64,000 bases of DNA, taken from the IMG/VR virus record IMGVR_UViG_2700988868_000001, positions 8,330-72,329 of that record, one strand, 5' to 3'. Source of the DNA: a virus. Lineage: Duplodnaviria > Caudoviricetes. Positions 569 through 62,813 of the stretch are shown here, piece by piece. The translations under genes were made by a program, and so were the position numbers. The first letter of the stretch is position 1. Every line of letters starts with the position of its first letter. The notes beneath the pieces were generated by a model, which did not search any database, was not told where the DNA came from, and saw only the letters and a program-made list of their open reading frames with translations.

Positions 569-784
569 ATGATGATCGCTGACGAACGTACTCAGCGGAA
601 TATCGAGTCCTGCATCAAGAAGGTGCTCGAAGCTAACGGCGGATGGGTCTACATGGCCCGAGCCAAGCATTCCAAGAACGTCCGCGATTACATCGTGGAT
701 ACCGCAGTTGCAACCATGGGCCTGATGGGCCTGAACATTGAAGTGGATGGCTATCACAAATGCCGTCTGCGAATCAAACCCTGA
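569..784 (+). CDS. Hypothetical protein
   Basis: ATG at 569 after GGAG; codon usage like the surrounding phage genes. Confidence 0.65.
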   Translation: MMIADERTQRNIESCIKKVLEANGGWVYMARAKHSKNVRDYIVDTAVATMGLMGLNIEVDGYHKCRLRIKP

Positions 785-799
785 ACCAAAGGAACCAAG

Positions 800-1570
800 A
801 TGAACAACGTCTCCCTGACCATGGGCTACAACAAGCAGCGTCTGTACCGCAACATCCTGGTCGATCTCGGCCTGGAGAGCGTGGAAGCTCGTTACCAAAG
901 CGACCACAAGACCTACCAGTTCGACCCGAAGCAGTTCGTTGCCTTCGTGGATCGTGCACTGCGTGACACCGAAGCCGTGTTCTCCCTGCGCTCCATGGGC
1001 TTCCGCCTCGTGAACACGGTGCAGGAACCGACGCAGCAGGAATTGGACCTGAACCAGATGAAGGAAATGTCCCGCACCGACCCGGACCAGTTCCTGTCCG
1101 AACTGATCGGCGGCATCCTGGGCGTGCCGGTACTCGTCGTCAAGGGCGAAGAAACCTGCGATTGCCCCGGCTGCACCCAAGGCATGTCCTTGGCTGAAGC
1201 CCTGCGTGCCAACTACCGTGAGACCGGTACGGTGCTGGGCAACGTCGAAACCAAGACGGAAGCTATCCTGAAAAGCGCCGCCTACAAGAACCAGAACAAG
1301 CCTTCGGACTCCGAGCTGGCCGACATGCATGAAAAGGCACTGGCCTGGGATGCGAAGATCACCGCTGCCACCGAGCAGGCACTTGACTTCTTCTACCAGC
1401 AGCTGCGTCCGGCGTCGGCCTGGGCCTGCTGGTCGTATCTGGAAAAGTGGAAAGGTCATCCGGCTTGGCTGGACTTCCGGCCCAAGAAGGAATACGCCGA
1501 AATCCCGGTGAAGGTTCTCTTCACCATGGCTCAACGCCTCCGTGCACAGATCATGGACATGAACCCCTGA
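800..1570 (+). CDS. Hypothetical protein
   Basis: 256-aa ORF with AAGGA RBS and strong phage codon bias. Confidence 0.8.
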   Translation: MNNVSLTMGYNKQRLYRNILVDLGLESVEARYQSDHKTYQFDPKQFVAFVDRALRDTEAVFSLRSMGFRLVNTVQEPTQQELDLNQMKEMSRTDPDQFLSELIGGILGVPVLVVKGEETCDCPGCTQGMSLAEALRANYRETGTVLGNVETKTEAILKSAAYKNQNKPSDSELADMHEKALAWDAKITAATEQALDFFYQQLRPASAWACWSYLEKWKGHPAWLDFRPKKEYAEIPVKVLFTMAQRLRAQIMDMNP

Positions 1571-1571
1571 C

Positions 1572-1916
1572 ATGCAGAAAGAACGCCGTATCTCCATTAT
1601 CAAGAAGATCGAAAGTCGGTGCGACATTCTCCACACCGGCTACGAGATTCAAGGTAAACCCAGCCCCTGCCACTTGTGGACGGGACCGGACTCGGGTAAC
1701 GGCCGAGGTGGTGGATACGGCAGGATGAGTTTGGATGGCCACACTGTGGCCGTTCATCTCGTCGCCTTCACGCACTACTACGGTTTCATTCCCGGCAACA
1801 AACAAGTGGATCACCTGTGCAACCAGAGAAAGTGCTGCAACCCGCAGCACCTGGAACTGGTGTCCCACATCACCAACCAAAGGCGGCGTGCCGCCAGAGC
1901 CAAAGGAAAGACATGA
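1572..1916 (+). CDS. HNH endonuclease (zinc-binding loop type, N4 gp22-like)
   Basis: CHLWTG...GYGRM...AVHLVAF...VDHLCNQRKCCNPQHLELVS motif. Confidence 0.85.
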   Translation: MQKERRISIIKKIESRCDILHTGYEIQGKPSPCHLWTGPDSGNGRGGGYGRMSLDGHTVAVHLVAFTHYYGFIPGNKQVDHLCNQRKCCNPQHLELVSHITNQRRRAARAKGKT

Positions 1917-2611
1917 ACACTTCTAAGCTAAAGCCTTGTCCATTTTGTGGTGGTGAAGCCTTTTCCACTTACAAAACAGGTGATGATGATATCTGCCGTC
2001 ATTCAGTTCACTGCCACAATCGCTGTGGTGCACAAACAGGAAGTAGTCTTCGGACTCACTACAGTGAAGAAGATGCTGTAAACGCATGGAATATGCGTGC
2101 TCCTGTAGCCGATGAATCACCAATGGCGAAGATGGCCGACGCACTGCGGGAGAAAGCCCGTCAAGAGCAGCAGGCTTACCAAGACAGCCGCGTCCAAAGT
2201 ACGGAATGGGGGCCGATGCCGCATGGAACGGAAGCTGATCTTCCTGCAAGCGCCCCTGTAGCCGTACTGTCGGACGAGGACATTCGGGAAGTGTTCCTGG
2301 CGCACGGCTTCACCGTGAAGGAAGGGCAGACCGATTTGAAACCCTACGTCTATGTAGCCGCCCGCGCACTGCTGGCTCAATATGCCGCACCGCAGGCCAG
2401 CGAGGCGGTACGCGATGAAAAACAACAGCATGCTCGTGCATTACGTGTGCTTGGTGGTATGTCCAACACGGCATACATGAACATTTTGCACGATCTCAAA
2501 TTCCAAGATCGAAGCCTTTCTAAAGAAGAATTCGATGCCTTTGCTGACAAGCTGGCTGATCTTTTTGATCTGCCTCCTGCTCAAGCAGAACAGGAATCCT
2601 TTGGTCGATAG
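1913..2611 (+). CDS. Lar-family restriction alleviation domain protein (mosaic)
   Basis: N-terminal LKPCPFCGGEA...HC..RCGA...EEDAVNAWNMR signature; ATGA overlap with the upstream HNH gene. Confidence 0.75.
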   Translation: MNTSKLKPCPFCGGEAFSTYKTGDDDICRHSVHCHNRCGAQTGSSLRTHYSEEDAVNAWNMRAPVADESPMAKMADALREKARQEQQAYQDSRVQSTEWGPMPHGTEADLPASAPVAVLSDEDIREVFLAHGFTVKEGQTDLKPYVYVAARALLAQYAAPQASEAVRDEKQQHARALRVLGGMSNTAYMNILHDLKFQDRSLSKEEFDAFADKLADLFDLPPAQAEQESFGR

Positions 2612-2705
2612 TTCCGGTCCATGCCTTGGTTCCAAGGCATTGGCAGGCGCTTTTGCCTGAATAACCGCCGTCGGTCGGATACCGATACCCATGAGGAAAC
2701 TCAAC

Positions 2706-61610: not shown

Positions 61611-61922
61611 ATGACTCGACTCTATTACCGTCTGGACAACACCAGCCGCTGGCACGAAACCACTGTTGAGAAGTCCCAATTCATTGAGGACGATCTCGTG
61701 ATTACTCACACAGAAGACCTCGCACATCTTTTGGTGGGGGGTGGAATCCTGACGGGCAAGCCTGTGCCTGCCATCTTCATAGACGCTCCCCAATATATAC
61801 ACCGCCGCAATCCCGGTGGTATGACCTTCTTCACTCGCATCCCCCGTGACACCTTCGTGGACCGGAAGACGGATGTGGTGGAACTGAACATCCTGTTTGG
61901 TCCTGACTGGCTCAGTCCTTGA
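61611..61922 (+). CDS. Hypothetical protein
   Basis: AGGGGA RBS; 103-aa ORF. Confidence 0.65.
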   Translation: MTRLYYRLDNTSRWHETTVEKSQFIEDDLVITHTEDLAHLLVGGGILTGKPVPAIFIDAPQYIHRRNPGGMTFFTRIPRDTFVDRKTDVVELNILFGPDWLSP

Positions 61923-62125
61923 CCATCCTCATATTTATGTGAGAGACTTTCTCTCGCTGATGGATTCTTAGCGCGGGTAGGTACTGCGATGAGGCCGCCC
62001 CCCAGTAGTTCGGTGGGGGTATCCCTCCTTGGGATTAATAACCGTCTACAGTCAGAGCCATGCGAACTCCTTAACATCCTCCGGGATGCCCAAGGGACTT
62101 CGGTCCCAATCGATGGTGATCTGAT
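61923..62125 (+). ncRNA. Putative structured RNA element
   Basis: Multibranch stems including a UUCG-capped hairpin; lies in the gap between RBS-bearing ORFs; ends at a terminator. Confidence 0.4.
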
Positions 62126-62128
62126 ACT

Positions 62129-62153
62129 AGGGACTCCTTCGGGAGTCCCTTTT
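62129..62153 (+). terminator. Rho-independent terminator
   Basis: AGGGACTCC-TTCG-GGAGTCCCT followed by TTT. Confidence 0.85.
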
Positions 62154-62175
62154 CATTTAACCCCCGGAGAACCAA

Positions 62176-62499
62176 ATGCCCATGCCCCTCGTCATCGACG
62201 TTCACTGCGTCTGTGCAGTACGCGCTGCCTACATCAGCCGTCTCGACCTACTCAGCTGTCTGCTGAAGAACTCCCTCTTCTCTCATGCCAATCCCCTGCT
62301 CATACCCCGAACCAAGAGGGGAATCCAGGCTGCGGGTGAAATCCTCCTGCTCGGCTACCCTGTCCCCACGACCATGATCGAAGATGGTCACTACTTGGTT
62401 CCCGGCACCCACTTCCTTGAGGTATCTGACGCCAATTACCAGTGGCACGCCACCAACGAGGCAATGCTCCACTTCCTATACCCAGCGGACCTGTCATGA
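62176..62499 (+). CDS. Hypothetical protein
   Basis: GGAG RBS; chained to the next gene by an ATGA overlap. Confidence 0.65.
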   Translation: MPMPLVIDVHCVCAVRAAYISRLDLLSCLLKNSLFSHANPLLIPRTKRGIQAAGEILLLGYPVPTTMIEDGHYLVPGTHFLEVSDANYQWHATNEAMLHFLYPADLS

Positions 62500-62813
62500 C
62501 ACTCCACGTATTCGACGTTACCTTCAACAACGCTCATGACCGGGGCAATGTCCTAGACTTCCCGGCCAAGCAGTACGGTCGCATCCTCGTCCCCCAACCC
62601 TACCAAGATGAAGTCTTCGGCTACGTGCTCCTGATGGACCTGCCCGGTAACTGGCAACGCGCCTCCTGGTATCACGGCATGATCTGCTTAGACGGCTGGC
62701 TCGTGGTCATCGATCCCAAGAAGGACACCTTCATCTACGACCGTATCACCATGCCCAGACTGGAACCAAAGGAGAAAGAGAATGTCCGCTATGGCAGACG
62801 AGTCATTGCTTGA
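62496..62813 (+). CDS. Hypothetical protein
   Basis: ATGA overlap with the upstream gene. Confidence 0.65.
   Translation: MTLHVFDVTFNNAHDRGNVLDFPAKQYGRILVPQPYQDEVFGYVLLMDLPGNWQRASWYHGMICLDGWLVVIDPKKDTFIYDRITMPRLEPKEKENVRYGRRVIA

Follow-up and report, generated by a model that had tools for sequence, protein, structure and literature searches.

A GAACCA-core word dispersed with strand bias over the genomes of N4-like phages

The stretch of DNA analysed here, called the window, comprises 64 kb (bases 8330-72329) of the 72.3-kb genome of an N4-like virus (IMG/VR record IMGVR_UViG_2700988868_000001, 72,329 bases; G000 below). Its subject is the heptamer GAACCAA (complement TTGGTTC), which is scattered over both strands. 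G000 ends in a direct terminal repeat of 365 bases and has the N4 gene order. Early and middle genes occupy the + strand to about 31 kb, vRNAP and late genes follow on the - strand to about 61.5 kb, and a few small + strand open reading frames (ORFs) lie at the right end. The 3425-aa ORF at 31042-41319 on the - strand shares about 80% DNA identity with the vRNAP genes of Achromobacter N4-like phages; this giant gene and the N4-like core genes in N4 order place the genome in the Schitoviridae. A tblastn match in the N4-like record G005 (70,153 bases) was found for 44 of the 73 called ORFs. The primase coordinates of G005 agree with those of coliphage N4, and the GAACCAG found there is taken as the N4 version of the word. 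Later counts use a gene model based on strand architecture, in which a few small ORFs are still mis-assigned.

The window contains exactly 75 copies of GAACCAA/TTGGTTC, 46 on the + strand and 29 on the - strand, and the whole of G000 contains 82. The original prediction, made by eye, had tallied about 74, and all 30 of its example coordinates are exact. Dinucleotide-preserving shuffles (n = 100) gave 9.6 ± 3.3 copies with a maximum of 20. The count is therefore far from expectation and the strong excess stands, although its size is about 7.8-fold rather than the roughly ten-fold first given. GAACCAA is the top over-represented 7-mer of the window and GAACCAAG its top 8-mer; 47 of the 75 copies carry the following G, where 2.6 copies of the 8-mer are expected from dinucleotides. 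The flanks are near background, the word being preceded by G or T and followed by bases rich in purines and poor in T; apart from the G at +8 and this purine-rich 3' side they are not conserved. GAACCAAG is identical when read backwards without complementing, which is probably chance, since GAACCAG of N4 lacks this symmetry. A maximal-order Markov expectation, which predicted 60.4 copies against the 75 observed, was set aside; it is useless as a null because the sub-words of GAACCAA are enriched too.

Codon shuffles were applied to 45 confident, high-scoring coding sequences (53.7 kb), which hold 61 copies. With the protein and the per-gene codon usage kept (n = 500), 14.5 ± 3.3 copies were obtained with a maximum of 24, so that the excess does not vanish under such a shuffle, the outcome that had been named as fatal to the claim. 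A stricter shuffle of third positions, in which the dinucleotides at codon junctions were also kept, gave 22.6 ± 3.6 copies (maximum 33; z about 10). The excess under codon-preserving nulls is smaller, about 3- to 4-fold, but persists. It is present in both orientations, with 34 sense copies against 8.5 and 27 antisense copies against 6.0 under the codon shuffle. When strand-specific 7-mers were ranked against the same null, the top ones were all overlapping pieces of the word, sense and antisense.

Copies occur in both orientations and in various frames, as had been noticed, but frame use is not even: within these coding sequences, 27 of the 34 sense copies read xxG AAC CAA and 15 of the 27 antisense copies read xTT GGT TCx. 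Synonymous choices in adjacent codons co-vary. Asn-Gln pairs (n = 57) use AAC in 53 cases, where the usual share of AAC is 73%, and 32 of them are AAC-CAA; the preceding codon ends in G in 27 of these 32 pairs, against only 9 of the 21 AAC-CAG pairs. The commonest antisense reading is CTT-GGT-TCx, in which CTT makes up 9% of Leu codons, GGT 42% and TTC 85% of theirs. Positions at which the protein permits GAACCAA bear it in 25-54% of cases. Single-base variants of GAACCA stand at 0.3-1.7 times expectation in G000 (GAACCA itself 3.5 times) and at 0.0-2.4 times in G005 (GAACCA 6.1 times); elsewhere they also range over 0.0-2.4 times, with the sole exception of GTACCA in genome G004 (3.8 times), which belongs to a separate excess of GGTACC. 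Since the excess survives the codon shuffle and synonymous sites co-vary, GAACCAA is selected at the DNA level and is not a coding by-product. The suggestion of a selected, dispersed DNA-level signal is thus upheld by the synonymous covariation, by both strands lying above the codon null and by single-base variants lying near expectation.

A repeat of the count in other Schitoviridae, which had been proposed as a check, gave the same picture. In six full genomes (G000 to G005), GAACCA ranks between 1st and 21st among hexamers, with 165 copies against 47 expected in G000 and 220 against 36 in G005, where it ranks 1st and GAACCAG reaches 110 against 8.5. The hexamer ranks 1st in eight of 12 IMG/VR loci, those eight having a GC content of 29-44%. 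Of the 53 capsid-gene loci found, the 37 that come from N4-like viral contigs no shorter than 12 kb were analysed as 21-kb loci; GAACCAA holds first or second place among the 7-mers of 14 of them, over a GC range of 29-56%. The complement of GAACCAG, CTGGTTC, appears among the top words of many contigs at GC 0.34-0.61. Other members favour related words: LIT1 has AAGCCA 142 times against 25.6 expected and GAACCA 37 times against 30, DFL12phi1 favours AACCAA, AAACCA and GAACCA, and Acinetobacter phage Ab2712 favours AAACCA, while one Vibrio phage gave weak word signals only. The GAACCA core is family-wide in N4-like phages, with lineage-specific versions.

Outside the family, GAACCA occurs 31 times against 21 expected in T7 and 30 times against 25.5 in a 50-kb stretch of E. 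coli. GAACCAG has 720 copies in the whole E. coli K-12 chromosome, or 0.155 per kb, against 1.57 per kb in G005; E. coli is the host of N4 and may not be the host of the G000 phage. The word is common across hosts, not enriched in E. coli and drifting between lineages, which points to a reader that is encoded by the phage rather than by the host. This reader is probably a conserved phage enzyme. Being enriched and on both strands, the word shows neither the avoidance of a restriction site nor the orientation of a Type III site.

The word is also biased towards one genome strand. GAACCAR has + and - counts of 70/47, 56/33, 80/48, 70/42, 63/33 and 99/58 in the six full genomes. The + strand copies span the whole genome, and in the late region all genes run antisense to them; the late region of the window holds 20 copies of GAACCAA on the + strand and 18 on the - strand, and its early and middle region 23 and 10. 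The strand antisense to the late genes is richer in GAACCA in 37 of 37 loci, with 947 against 604 copies in total, whereas strand composition would predict 170 against 191. Codon effects are removed from the strand test by a 2x2 comparison of codable positions. For the antisense reading, the positions occupied on the + and the - genome strand were 20/44 and 10/40 in G000, 30/55 and 10/35 in G002, 25/52 and 10/36 in G004, and 35/47 and 16/40 in G005. No polarity switch point was found along the genome. A depletion of - strand copies in the first 9 kb was considered as a family trait and rejected. Codable - strand sites there were occupied at 1/28 against 19/56 in G004 (significant) and at 5/28 against 25/61 in G000 (borderline), and the depletion is missing in G002 (2/16 against 18/67; p 0.34) and G005 (11/22 against 31/62).

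The + strand copies are spaced more evenly than by random placement. The coefficient of variation (CV) of GAACCAR spacing on this strand is 0.68-0.85 over the six genomes, against about 0.98 for random placement, with a mean spacing of about 1 kb and a largest gap of 3.1-4.7 kb. Random sets were as even in no more than 2.8% of cases in five genomes and in 6.4% in G005. G000 has 70 such copies in 72.3 kb, with a largest gap of 3.5 kb and a CV of 0.75 against 0.98. The evenness of the - strand copies is not significant in the six genomes. Close pairs, which iterons, operators or partition arrays would produce, are not in excess, with 32 GAACCA pairs less than 100 bp apart against 33.5 expected on both strands of G000, and the 365-bp terminal repeat has zero copies. 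Individual sites turn over. When aligned with G002, the closest full genome (78% identity over 54 kb), 37 of 65 copies are intact, against 26% for all 7-mers; 12 of 49 copies survive in G001 and 15 of 49 in G003, where the share for all 7-mers is 17-18%. Sites are mildly conserved and replaced over time while the density is kept, and a signal of this turnover type acts through coverage and not through exact place. Taken together, the family-wide word, a strand bias that is independent of transcription and the even + strand spacing point to a polar, strand-specific reader, for which a replication or recombination enzyme fits better than a symmetric binder of double-stranded DNA (dsDNA). The lineage versions of the word, the bias towards one genome strand and the even + strand spacing are additions to the original prediction.

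Clustering just before start codons, which had also been claimed, is found in G000 but is no general trait. Over the 88 ORFs of the whole genome, the zone of 0-40 nt before called starts contains the ends of nine sense copies but of a single antisense copy; in G005 it contains two of each. With only nine of the 82 genome copies so placed, the word does not behave as a Shine-Dalgarno or translation-initiation element. The clustering is regarded as a lineage-specific side effect and not as the function, because the end ...CCAAGG overlaps a Shine-Dalgarno-like AAGGA.

The candidate readers lie in the replication module (Table 1). The gp43-like protein matches Pfam PriCT_1 (E 3e-8), its sole Pfam match, and carries the PHROG label 'DNA primase'. 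Its N-terminus is a P-loop ATPase with SGxGKGxS and QIDEIG, of which Walker A (SGxGKG) and Walker B (DE) are invariant in 16 aligned relatives. Its C-terminus has motifs that read as AEP-like primase motifs (IDVDGG, TYTTKRH, LPFxTDES) beside PriCT_1; in the same alignment IDxD and LPFxxD are invariant and TYTTK(R)H keeps its His in 13 of 16. The protein may be a helicase-primase fusion with a C-terminal primase. At 75% identity to its G005 homologue it is the third most conserved protein, behind the capsid protein and the 538-aa late ORF, and the most conserved non-structural one. A tblastn search of 50,697 phage records gave a match in 468; among the 60 matches listed, all are N4-like by name or size bar one partial match in a 55.9-kb Pseudomonas phage record. 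A scan of viral contigs gave 38 loci, all highly similar. The AlphaFold2 (AF2) model has a pLDDT of 65.5, good at residues 11-450 and poor (<50) at 510-651, and its best Foldseek matches among solved structures are MCM helicase chains (E 1e-4, TM about 0.3), a weak resemblance that serves as no more than a hint. No DNA methyltransferase turned up among 22 scanned proteins. The 538-aa late ORF is taken as the large terminase from its position and conservation.

The explanation that is tentatively preferred, with considerable reserve, is that the gp43-like ATPase-primase reads GAACCAA(G) as a start signal on the lagging-strand template. GAACCAA(G) is the present lineage's version of a GAACCA-core word that is held dense on both strands by selection, and on this reading lagging-strand primers would start at it. 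With the template read 3' to 5', primers would begin pppGG... opposite the CC, while the 3' A(A)G would serve for recognition without being copied, like the cryptic C in the T7 site 5'-GTC-3'. By chance, a word of 6-8 nt turns up only once per several kb per strand, and the genome would therefore need to be enriched for it. This enrichment would be achieved mostly through synonymous codon choice, would allow Okazaki fragments of about 1 kb and would be stronger on the strand that more often serves as the lagging template. If replication started near the left end and ran mostly rightward, the + strand would be the displaced or lagging template, which would fit both the bias and the spacing of about 1 kb. 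Sites on the + strand are frequent enough for fragments on the kb scale, provided that this strand is the lagging template, as is assumed here. The primase as reader, the primer sequence and the direction of replication are all inferences.

Several points weigh against a role as primase start signal. No paper links gp43 to the word. The known sites of the T7 primase are at most about two-fold enriched (TGGTC 79 against 40.6), and none ranks above 27th among the pentamers of either strand; strong enrichment is therefore no established property of primase sites. The primase call rests on PriCT_1, PHROG labels and motifs read from an alignment, in a part of the protein where the AF2 model is poor (residues 510-651); the Pfam AEP catalytic domain was not matched in the gp43-like protein, and the His of motif II is replaced in three of the 16 sequences. 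Every candidate reader is encoded by a core gene of the family, and co-occurrence is therefore unable to single out the primase. The GC skew is flat and therefore gives no replication direction. The strand bias is modest, at about 63:37, and nearly absent in LIT1 (76 against 66) and in the replication-gene region of those loci at GC 0.44-0.46 in which GAACCA and AACCAG come top (28/32 and 30/27, for instance). The count of 37 in 37 loci overstates the evidence for polarity, because the relatives are phylogenetically dependent. Finally, a Chi-like signal would show the same polarity.

Such a signal is one alternative, although an unlikely one. The word would be a phage-private Chi-like signal or self-mark, read on single-stranded DNA by the RecD2-like helicase, the RecB/Cas4 exonuclease and the Sak4-like annealase, by which the machinery would switch from degradation to recombination on phage DNA and treat the word-poor host DNA differently. 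Like Chi, the word is over-represented and strand-polar, its density in G005 is ten times that in E. coli K-12, as a mark of self would require, and its lineage-specific variants would suit a private code; the helicase, exonuclease and annealase genes all belong to the replication module, and N4-like relatives conserve them. However, no helicase-nuclease fusion or RecC-like subunit turned up, RecC/AddB-like proteins not having been specifically sought, and the helicase matches RecD2 below the family cut-off. Few - strand copies, the ones that would face an enzyme coming in from the left end, lie in the first 9 kb (5 of 28 codable sites in G000, 1 of 28 in G004), an even spacing of about 1 kb is not known for Chi, and GAACCAG, at the density given above, is not a word enriched in E. 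coli. The host Chi octamer is rare in these phage genomes (2-11 copies per strand), which is neutral with regard to a private signal. It is conceivable, if doubtful, that the polar word (GAACCA here and in N4, AAGCCA in LIT1-like phages) is a private, lineage-evolving 'self' code read by the phage replication-recombination machinery, which would thereby tell phage from host DNA and direct priming or resection stops, the genome being recoded synonymously to carry it. A set of dsDNA sites bound by a conserved phage protein with a role in genome organisation, condensation, packaging or ejection, such as the gp69-like protein adjoining the 538-aa late ORF or the HTH protein, is likewise improbable. 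The word is indeed family-wide, and it is dense and even throughout the genome, non-coding DNA included; the 538-aa late ORF and the gp69-like protein, which is without known function, are among the proteins most conserved against G005. Such binding gives no reason for a strand bias in both transcription blocks, however, and arrays or dimer sites would yield an excess of close or fixed-distance pairs, of which there is none; the word is asymmetric with barely conserved flanks, and the terminal repeat lacks it.

A transcription signal (promoter, pause or termination) for the phage or host RNA polymerase is very unlikely. The nine sense copies before starts in G000 would suit it, and N4 RNAPII recognises short sequences in the single-stranded template strand (available passages of PMC4496689). 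Against it, most copies are intragenic, 30 of the 75 in the window are antisense, the majority strand in the late region is antisense to every gene, and the excess before starts is missing in G005. Known promoters of these phages look different. According to the portions available from the papers cited, N4 middle promoters are AT-rich, extend from -7 to +2 and lie in the left half only (PMC4496689), hairpins serve as early promoters in N4 and as both early and middle promoters in LUZ7 (PMC9163698), and an N4-type promoter hairpin has a stem of 5-7 bp and a 3-nt loop and points rightward (PMC4496689, PMC9163698). The word has no hairpin context and occurs on both strands over the whole genome. 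Slighter still is the chance that the word has no function and is a by-product of codon-pair preference, of selection on mRNA or of context-dependent mutation bias. The very uneven frame use (27 of 34 sense copies G-AAC-CAA), the rise of the null to 22.6 under the stricter shuffle and the make-up of the word from favoured codons (AAC, GGT, TTC) speak for such an origin. However, z is still about 10 under that shuffle, the antisense excess uses the rare Leu codon CTT, and the excess recurs in genomes whose GC content ranges from 29 to 56% and whose codon usage differs greatly. Neither E. coli nor T7 shows the enrichment, and the bias tracks the genome strand, not the mRNA strand. The probability that remains beyond the priming signal and its four alternatives (Chi-like, dsDNA-binding, transcriptional and functionless) falls to some explanation that has not been thought of.

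Several known systems invite comparison. The sites of the T7 gp4 primase have the template core 5'-GTC-3', extended to GGGTC, TGGTC or GTGTC. Like the word, they are short, asymmetric and read on a single strand, with a conserved core and a variable extension proposed for both, and T7 encodes its own primase fused to an NTPase, as the N4-like phages are predicted to do with gp43. T7 sites, however, are pentamers that occur by chance every few hundred bases and are at most 2-fold enriched, whereas the N4-like word has 6-8 nt and is 3- to 18-fold enriched; the T7 primase is DnaG-like and the N4-like candidate AEP-like, and the N4-like word is known from sequence alone. Chi is GCTGGTGG in E. coli, with host-specific words in other bacteria, and is read by the host RecBCD or AddAB. 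Both Chi and the N4-like word are over-represented, strand-polar and genome-wide, and in both density outweighs exact position, but Chi is a word of the host, whereas the N4-like word is common to phages of many hosts and poor in E. coli. The FtsK-orienting polar sequences (KOPS), GGGNAGGG, are also polar and over-represented, and both words could guide a DNA translocase; KOPS polarity flips at the replication terminus, whereas the N4-like word has no switch point, and no FtsK-like reader was identified. DNA uptake sequences occur in Neisseria and Pasteurellaceae. They too are dispersed short words at about one per kb, but belong to host genomes, while the N4-like word is poor in E. coli. The HIP1 octamer of cyanobacteria, GCGATCGC, is described as hyper-abundant and of unknown function in the passages available from PMC5861425. 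HIP1 and GAACCAAG are both octamers far above expectation in coding DNA, selected, with sites that turn over and an unproven function; HIP1 is a reverse-complement palindrome of cellular genomes, whereas GAACCAAG is asymmetric, strand-biased and viral.

Full-text literature searches found no account of the word, matches to it being primer sequences, and gave nothing that contradicts the earlier statement that it is undescribed in N4-like phages. It is not mentioned in the passages available from PMC9163698, PMC4837373, PMC13037366, PMC7145618 and PMC4496689, and in those from the phiAxp-3 paper (PMC4837373) the words 'motif' and 'promoter' do not occur. Drc binding is seemingly not sequence-specific, according to PMC7145618. 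For decades coliphage N4 has served as a model, and yet searchable texts attach no function to its commonest hexamer (220 copies in G005). If the word were a primase start signal, no earlier example of an extended template signal would be known for AEP-type phage primases, the direction and mode of N4 replication could be read from it, and a whole virus family would be recoding 25-74% of the codon positions that permit the word in order to carry a replication signal. If it were a private Chi-like or organising signal, phages would have a novel means of marking their DNA as their own. Under any reading, the word is a simple diagnostic signature of the N4-like family and a constraint when N4-like phages are recoded or engineered.

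Table 1. The 75 copies of GAACCAA in the window, followed by genes named in the text. For the copies, the strand is the genome strand bearing GAACCAA and the coordinates are those of the 7-mer; GAACCAAG marks a copy with the 8-mer.
Feature	Position	Strand	Context or evidence
GAACCAA	783..789	+	intergenic, 10 nt before start 800
GAACCAAG	792..798	+	intergenic, 1 nt before start 800
GAACCAAG	2626..2632	-	intergenic/ORF boundary
GAACCAAG	3023..3029	+	sense, ORF 2691-3620
GAACCAA	3677..3683	+	1 nt before ATG 3685, inside longest ORF 3649-4044
GAACCAAG	5762..5768	+	10 nt before start 5779
GAACCAA	7104..7110	-	antisense, ORF 6869-7393
GAACCAAG	7351..7357	+	8 nt before start 7366
GAACCAA	7530..7536	-	antisense, ORF 7366-8526
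GAACCAAG	8815..8821	+	sense, dCTP-deaminase-like ORF 8672-9166
GAACCAAG	9127..9133	+	sense, ORF 8672-9166
GAACCAA	11242..11248	+	sense, ORF 11129-11707
GAACCAAG	11677..11683	-	antisense, ORF 11129-11707
GAACCAA	12792..12798	+	sense, ThyX-like ORF 12577-13488
GAACCAA	14787..14793	+	sense, rIIA-like ORF 13552-16089
GAACCAAG	15707..15713	-	antisense, ORF 13552-16089
GAACCAAG	17514..17520	+	sense, rIIB-like ORF 16099-17703
GAACCAAG	18560..18566	+	5 nt before ATG 18572, helicase ORF
GAACCAA	19168..19174	+	sense, helicase ORF 18542-19876
GAACCAA	20192..20198	+	sense, ORF 19869-20411
GAACCAAG	20468..20474	-	antisense, DNA polymerase ORF 20420-23080
GAACCAAG	20646..20652	+	sense, DNA polymerase ORF
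GAACCAAG	20840..20846	-	antisense, DNA polymerase ORF
GAACCAA	21074..21080	+	sense, DNA polymerase ORF
GAACCAAG	24761..24767	+	inside exonuclease ORF 24027-25019
GAACCAA	25533..25539	-	antisense, gp43-like ORF
GAACCAAG	25855..25861	+	sense, gp43-like ORF
GAACCAA	26959..26965	-	antisense, gp43-like ORF
GAACCAAG	28591..28597	+	sense, ORF 27872-28774
GAACCAAG	29085..29091	+	inside ORF 28778-29305, unassigned in the gene model
GAACCAA	29425..29431	+	sense, ORF 29206-29862
GAACCAA	29543..29549	-	antisense, ORF 29206-29862
GAACCAAG	29865..29871	+	1 nt before start 29873, HNH-AP2 ORF
GAACCAAG	32158..32164	-	sense, vRNAP ORF
GAACCAAG	32204..32210	+	antisense, vRNAP ORF
GAACCAA	32383..32389	-	sense, vRNAP ORF
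GAACCAAG	33481..33487	-	sense, vRNAP ORF
GAACCAAG	34563..34569	+	antisense, vRNAP ORF
GAACCAA	34744..34750	-	sense, vRNAP ORF
GAACCAAG	35468..35474	+	antisense, vRNAP ORF
GAACCAA	35695..35701	-	sense, vRNAP ORF
GAACCAA	36152..36158	+	antisense, vRNAP ORF
GAACCAAG	37369..37375	-	sense, vRNAP ORF
GAACCAA	38375..38381	+	antisense, vRNAP ORF
GAACCAA	38531..38537	+	antisense, vRNAP ORF
GAACCAAG	39631..39637	-	sense, vRNAP ORF
GAACCAAG	39934..39940	-	sense, vRNAP ORF
GAACCAA	40319..40325	+	antisense, vRNAP ORF
GAACCAAG	40676..40682	+	antisense, vRNAP ORF
GAACCAAG	41462..41468	+	antisense, ORF 41418-43469
GAACCAAG	41902..41908	+	antisense, ORF 41418-43469
GAACCAA	42727..42733	+	antisense, ORF 41418-43469
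GAACCAAG	42918..42924	-	sense, ORF 41418-43469
GAACCAAG	43186..43192	+	antisense, ORF 41418-43469
GAACCAAG	43821..43827	+	antisense, ORF 43481-44005
GAACCAA	47198..47204	-	sense, ORF 46691-47590
GAACCAA	47254..47260	+	antisense, ORF 46691-47590
GAACCAAG	47608..47614	-	intergenic, 17 nt before start 47590 (- strand gene)
GAACCAAG	48419..48425	-	intergenic, between capsid gene and ORF 47669-48367
GAACCAA	51358..51364	-	sense, ORF 51031-51402
GAACCAAG	51474..51480	+	antisense, 773-aa late ORF 51413-53734
GAACCAAG	52313..52319	-	sense, ORF 51413-53734
GAACCAAG	52382..52388	-	sense, ORF 51413-53734
GAACCAAG	52606..52612	+	antisense, ORF 51413-53734
GAACCAAG	53322..53328	-	sense, ORF 51413-53734
GAACCAAG	53415..53421	+	antisense, ORF 51413-53734
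GAACCAAG	56875..56881	+	antisense, ORF 55507-57960
GAACCAAG	58177..58183	-	sense, ORF 57964-58668
GAACCAAG	58935..58941	+	antisense, 538-aa late ORF 58677-60293
GAACCAA	60074..60080	-	sense, ORF 58677-60293
GAACCAAG	60588..60594	+	antisense, gp69-like ORF 60280-60960
GAACCAA	62169..62175	+	abuts ATG 62176
GAACCAAG	62309..62315	+	right-end small-ORF region
GAACCAAG	62395..62401	-	right-end small-ORF region
GAACCAA	62763..62769	+	12 nt before start 62782
gp43-like 724-aa protein, candidate reader	24986..27160	+	PriCT_1, PHROG, motifs
RecD2-like SF1B helicase, rival candidate reader	18542..19876	+	Pfam AAA_30, UvrD_C_2; NCBIfam RecD2 E 9e-26, below cut-off
Family A DNA polymerase	20420..23080	+	Pfam DNA_pol_A E 1e-31
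RecB/Cas4-family exonuclease, N4 gp42-like	24027..25019	+	PHROG exonuclease E 4e-145; annotations in relatives
Sak4-like single-stranded DNA annealing protein, N4 gp44-like	27208..27981	+	PHROG E 6.5e-42
300-aa ORF	27872-28774		no family match; place where relatives annotate SSB
gp69-like protein	60280-60960	-	no known function; 62.6% identical to G005
538-aa late ORF	58677-60293		75.7% identical to G005
264-aa protein	1817-2611		Lar-like restriction-alleviation domain, E 1e-11
dCTP-deaminase-like ORF	8672-9166
ThyX-like ORF	12577-13488		Pfam scan
rIIA-like ORF	13552-16089
rIIB-like ORF	16099-17703
HTH protein	17739-18266
163-aa protein	29873-30364		HNH_3 and weak AP2 match, as in homing endonuclease

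Other words are over-represented or avoided in these genomes. The coding strands of G005 carry a second word, one base off GAACCA: TGACCCA (35 against 6.5) and GACCCAG (22 against 4.8) exceed the codon-shuffle null there, on the sense strand only. G005 also avoids GATC almost totally, with one copy against about 258 by base composition and GATCCA at 0 against 34, while the other five genomes hold 425-669 copies of GATC. In the lineage of G004 and locus L015, the palindrome GGTACC is a second word, with 59 copies, while counts in the other five genomes are 0-7; there are also 64 copies of GTACCA where 17 are expected, and 17 of CGGTACC where 0.9 are. In bases 1-50000 of the Acinetobacter phage OK149216.1, a palindromic word of the GTACGTA type is more enriched than any GAACCA-like word (GTACGTA/TACGTAC 47 against 3.0; CGTACG 64 against 8). 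GCCGGC is over-represented in high-GC N4-like contigs, at 68 against 16 in L097 and 84 against 23 in L112, and GCCGGCC at 33 against 6.6 in L043. Just upstream of the gp69-like gene (start 60960, - strand), positions 60965-60997 of the window hold the 16-nt palindrome CCTCTATATATAGAGG and then a GGGGGCT-ATC-AGCCCCC stem-loop, which together may be a late promoter or operator plus a terminator.

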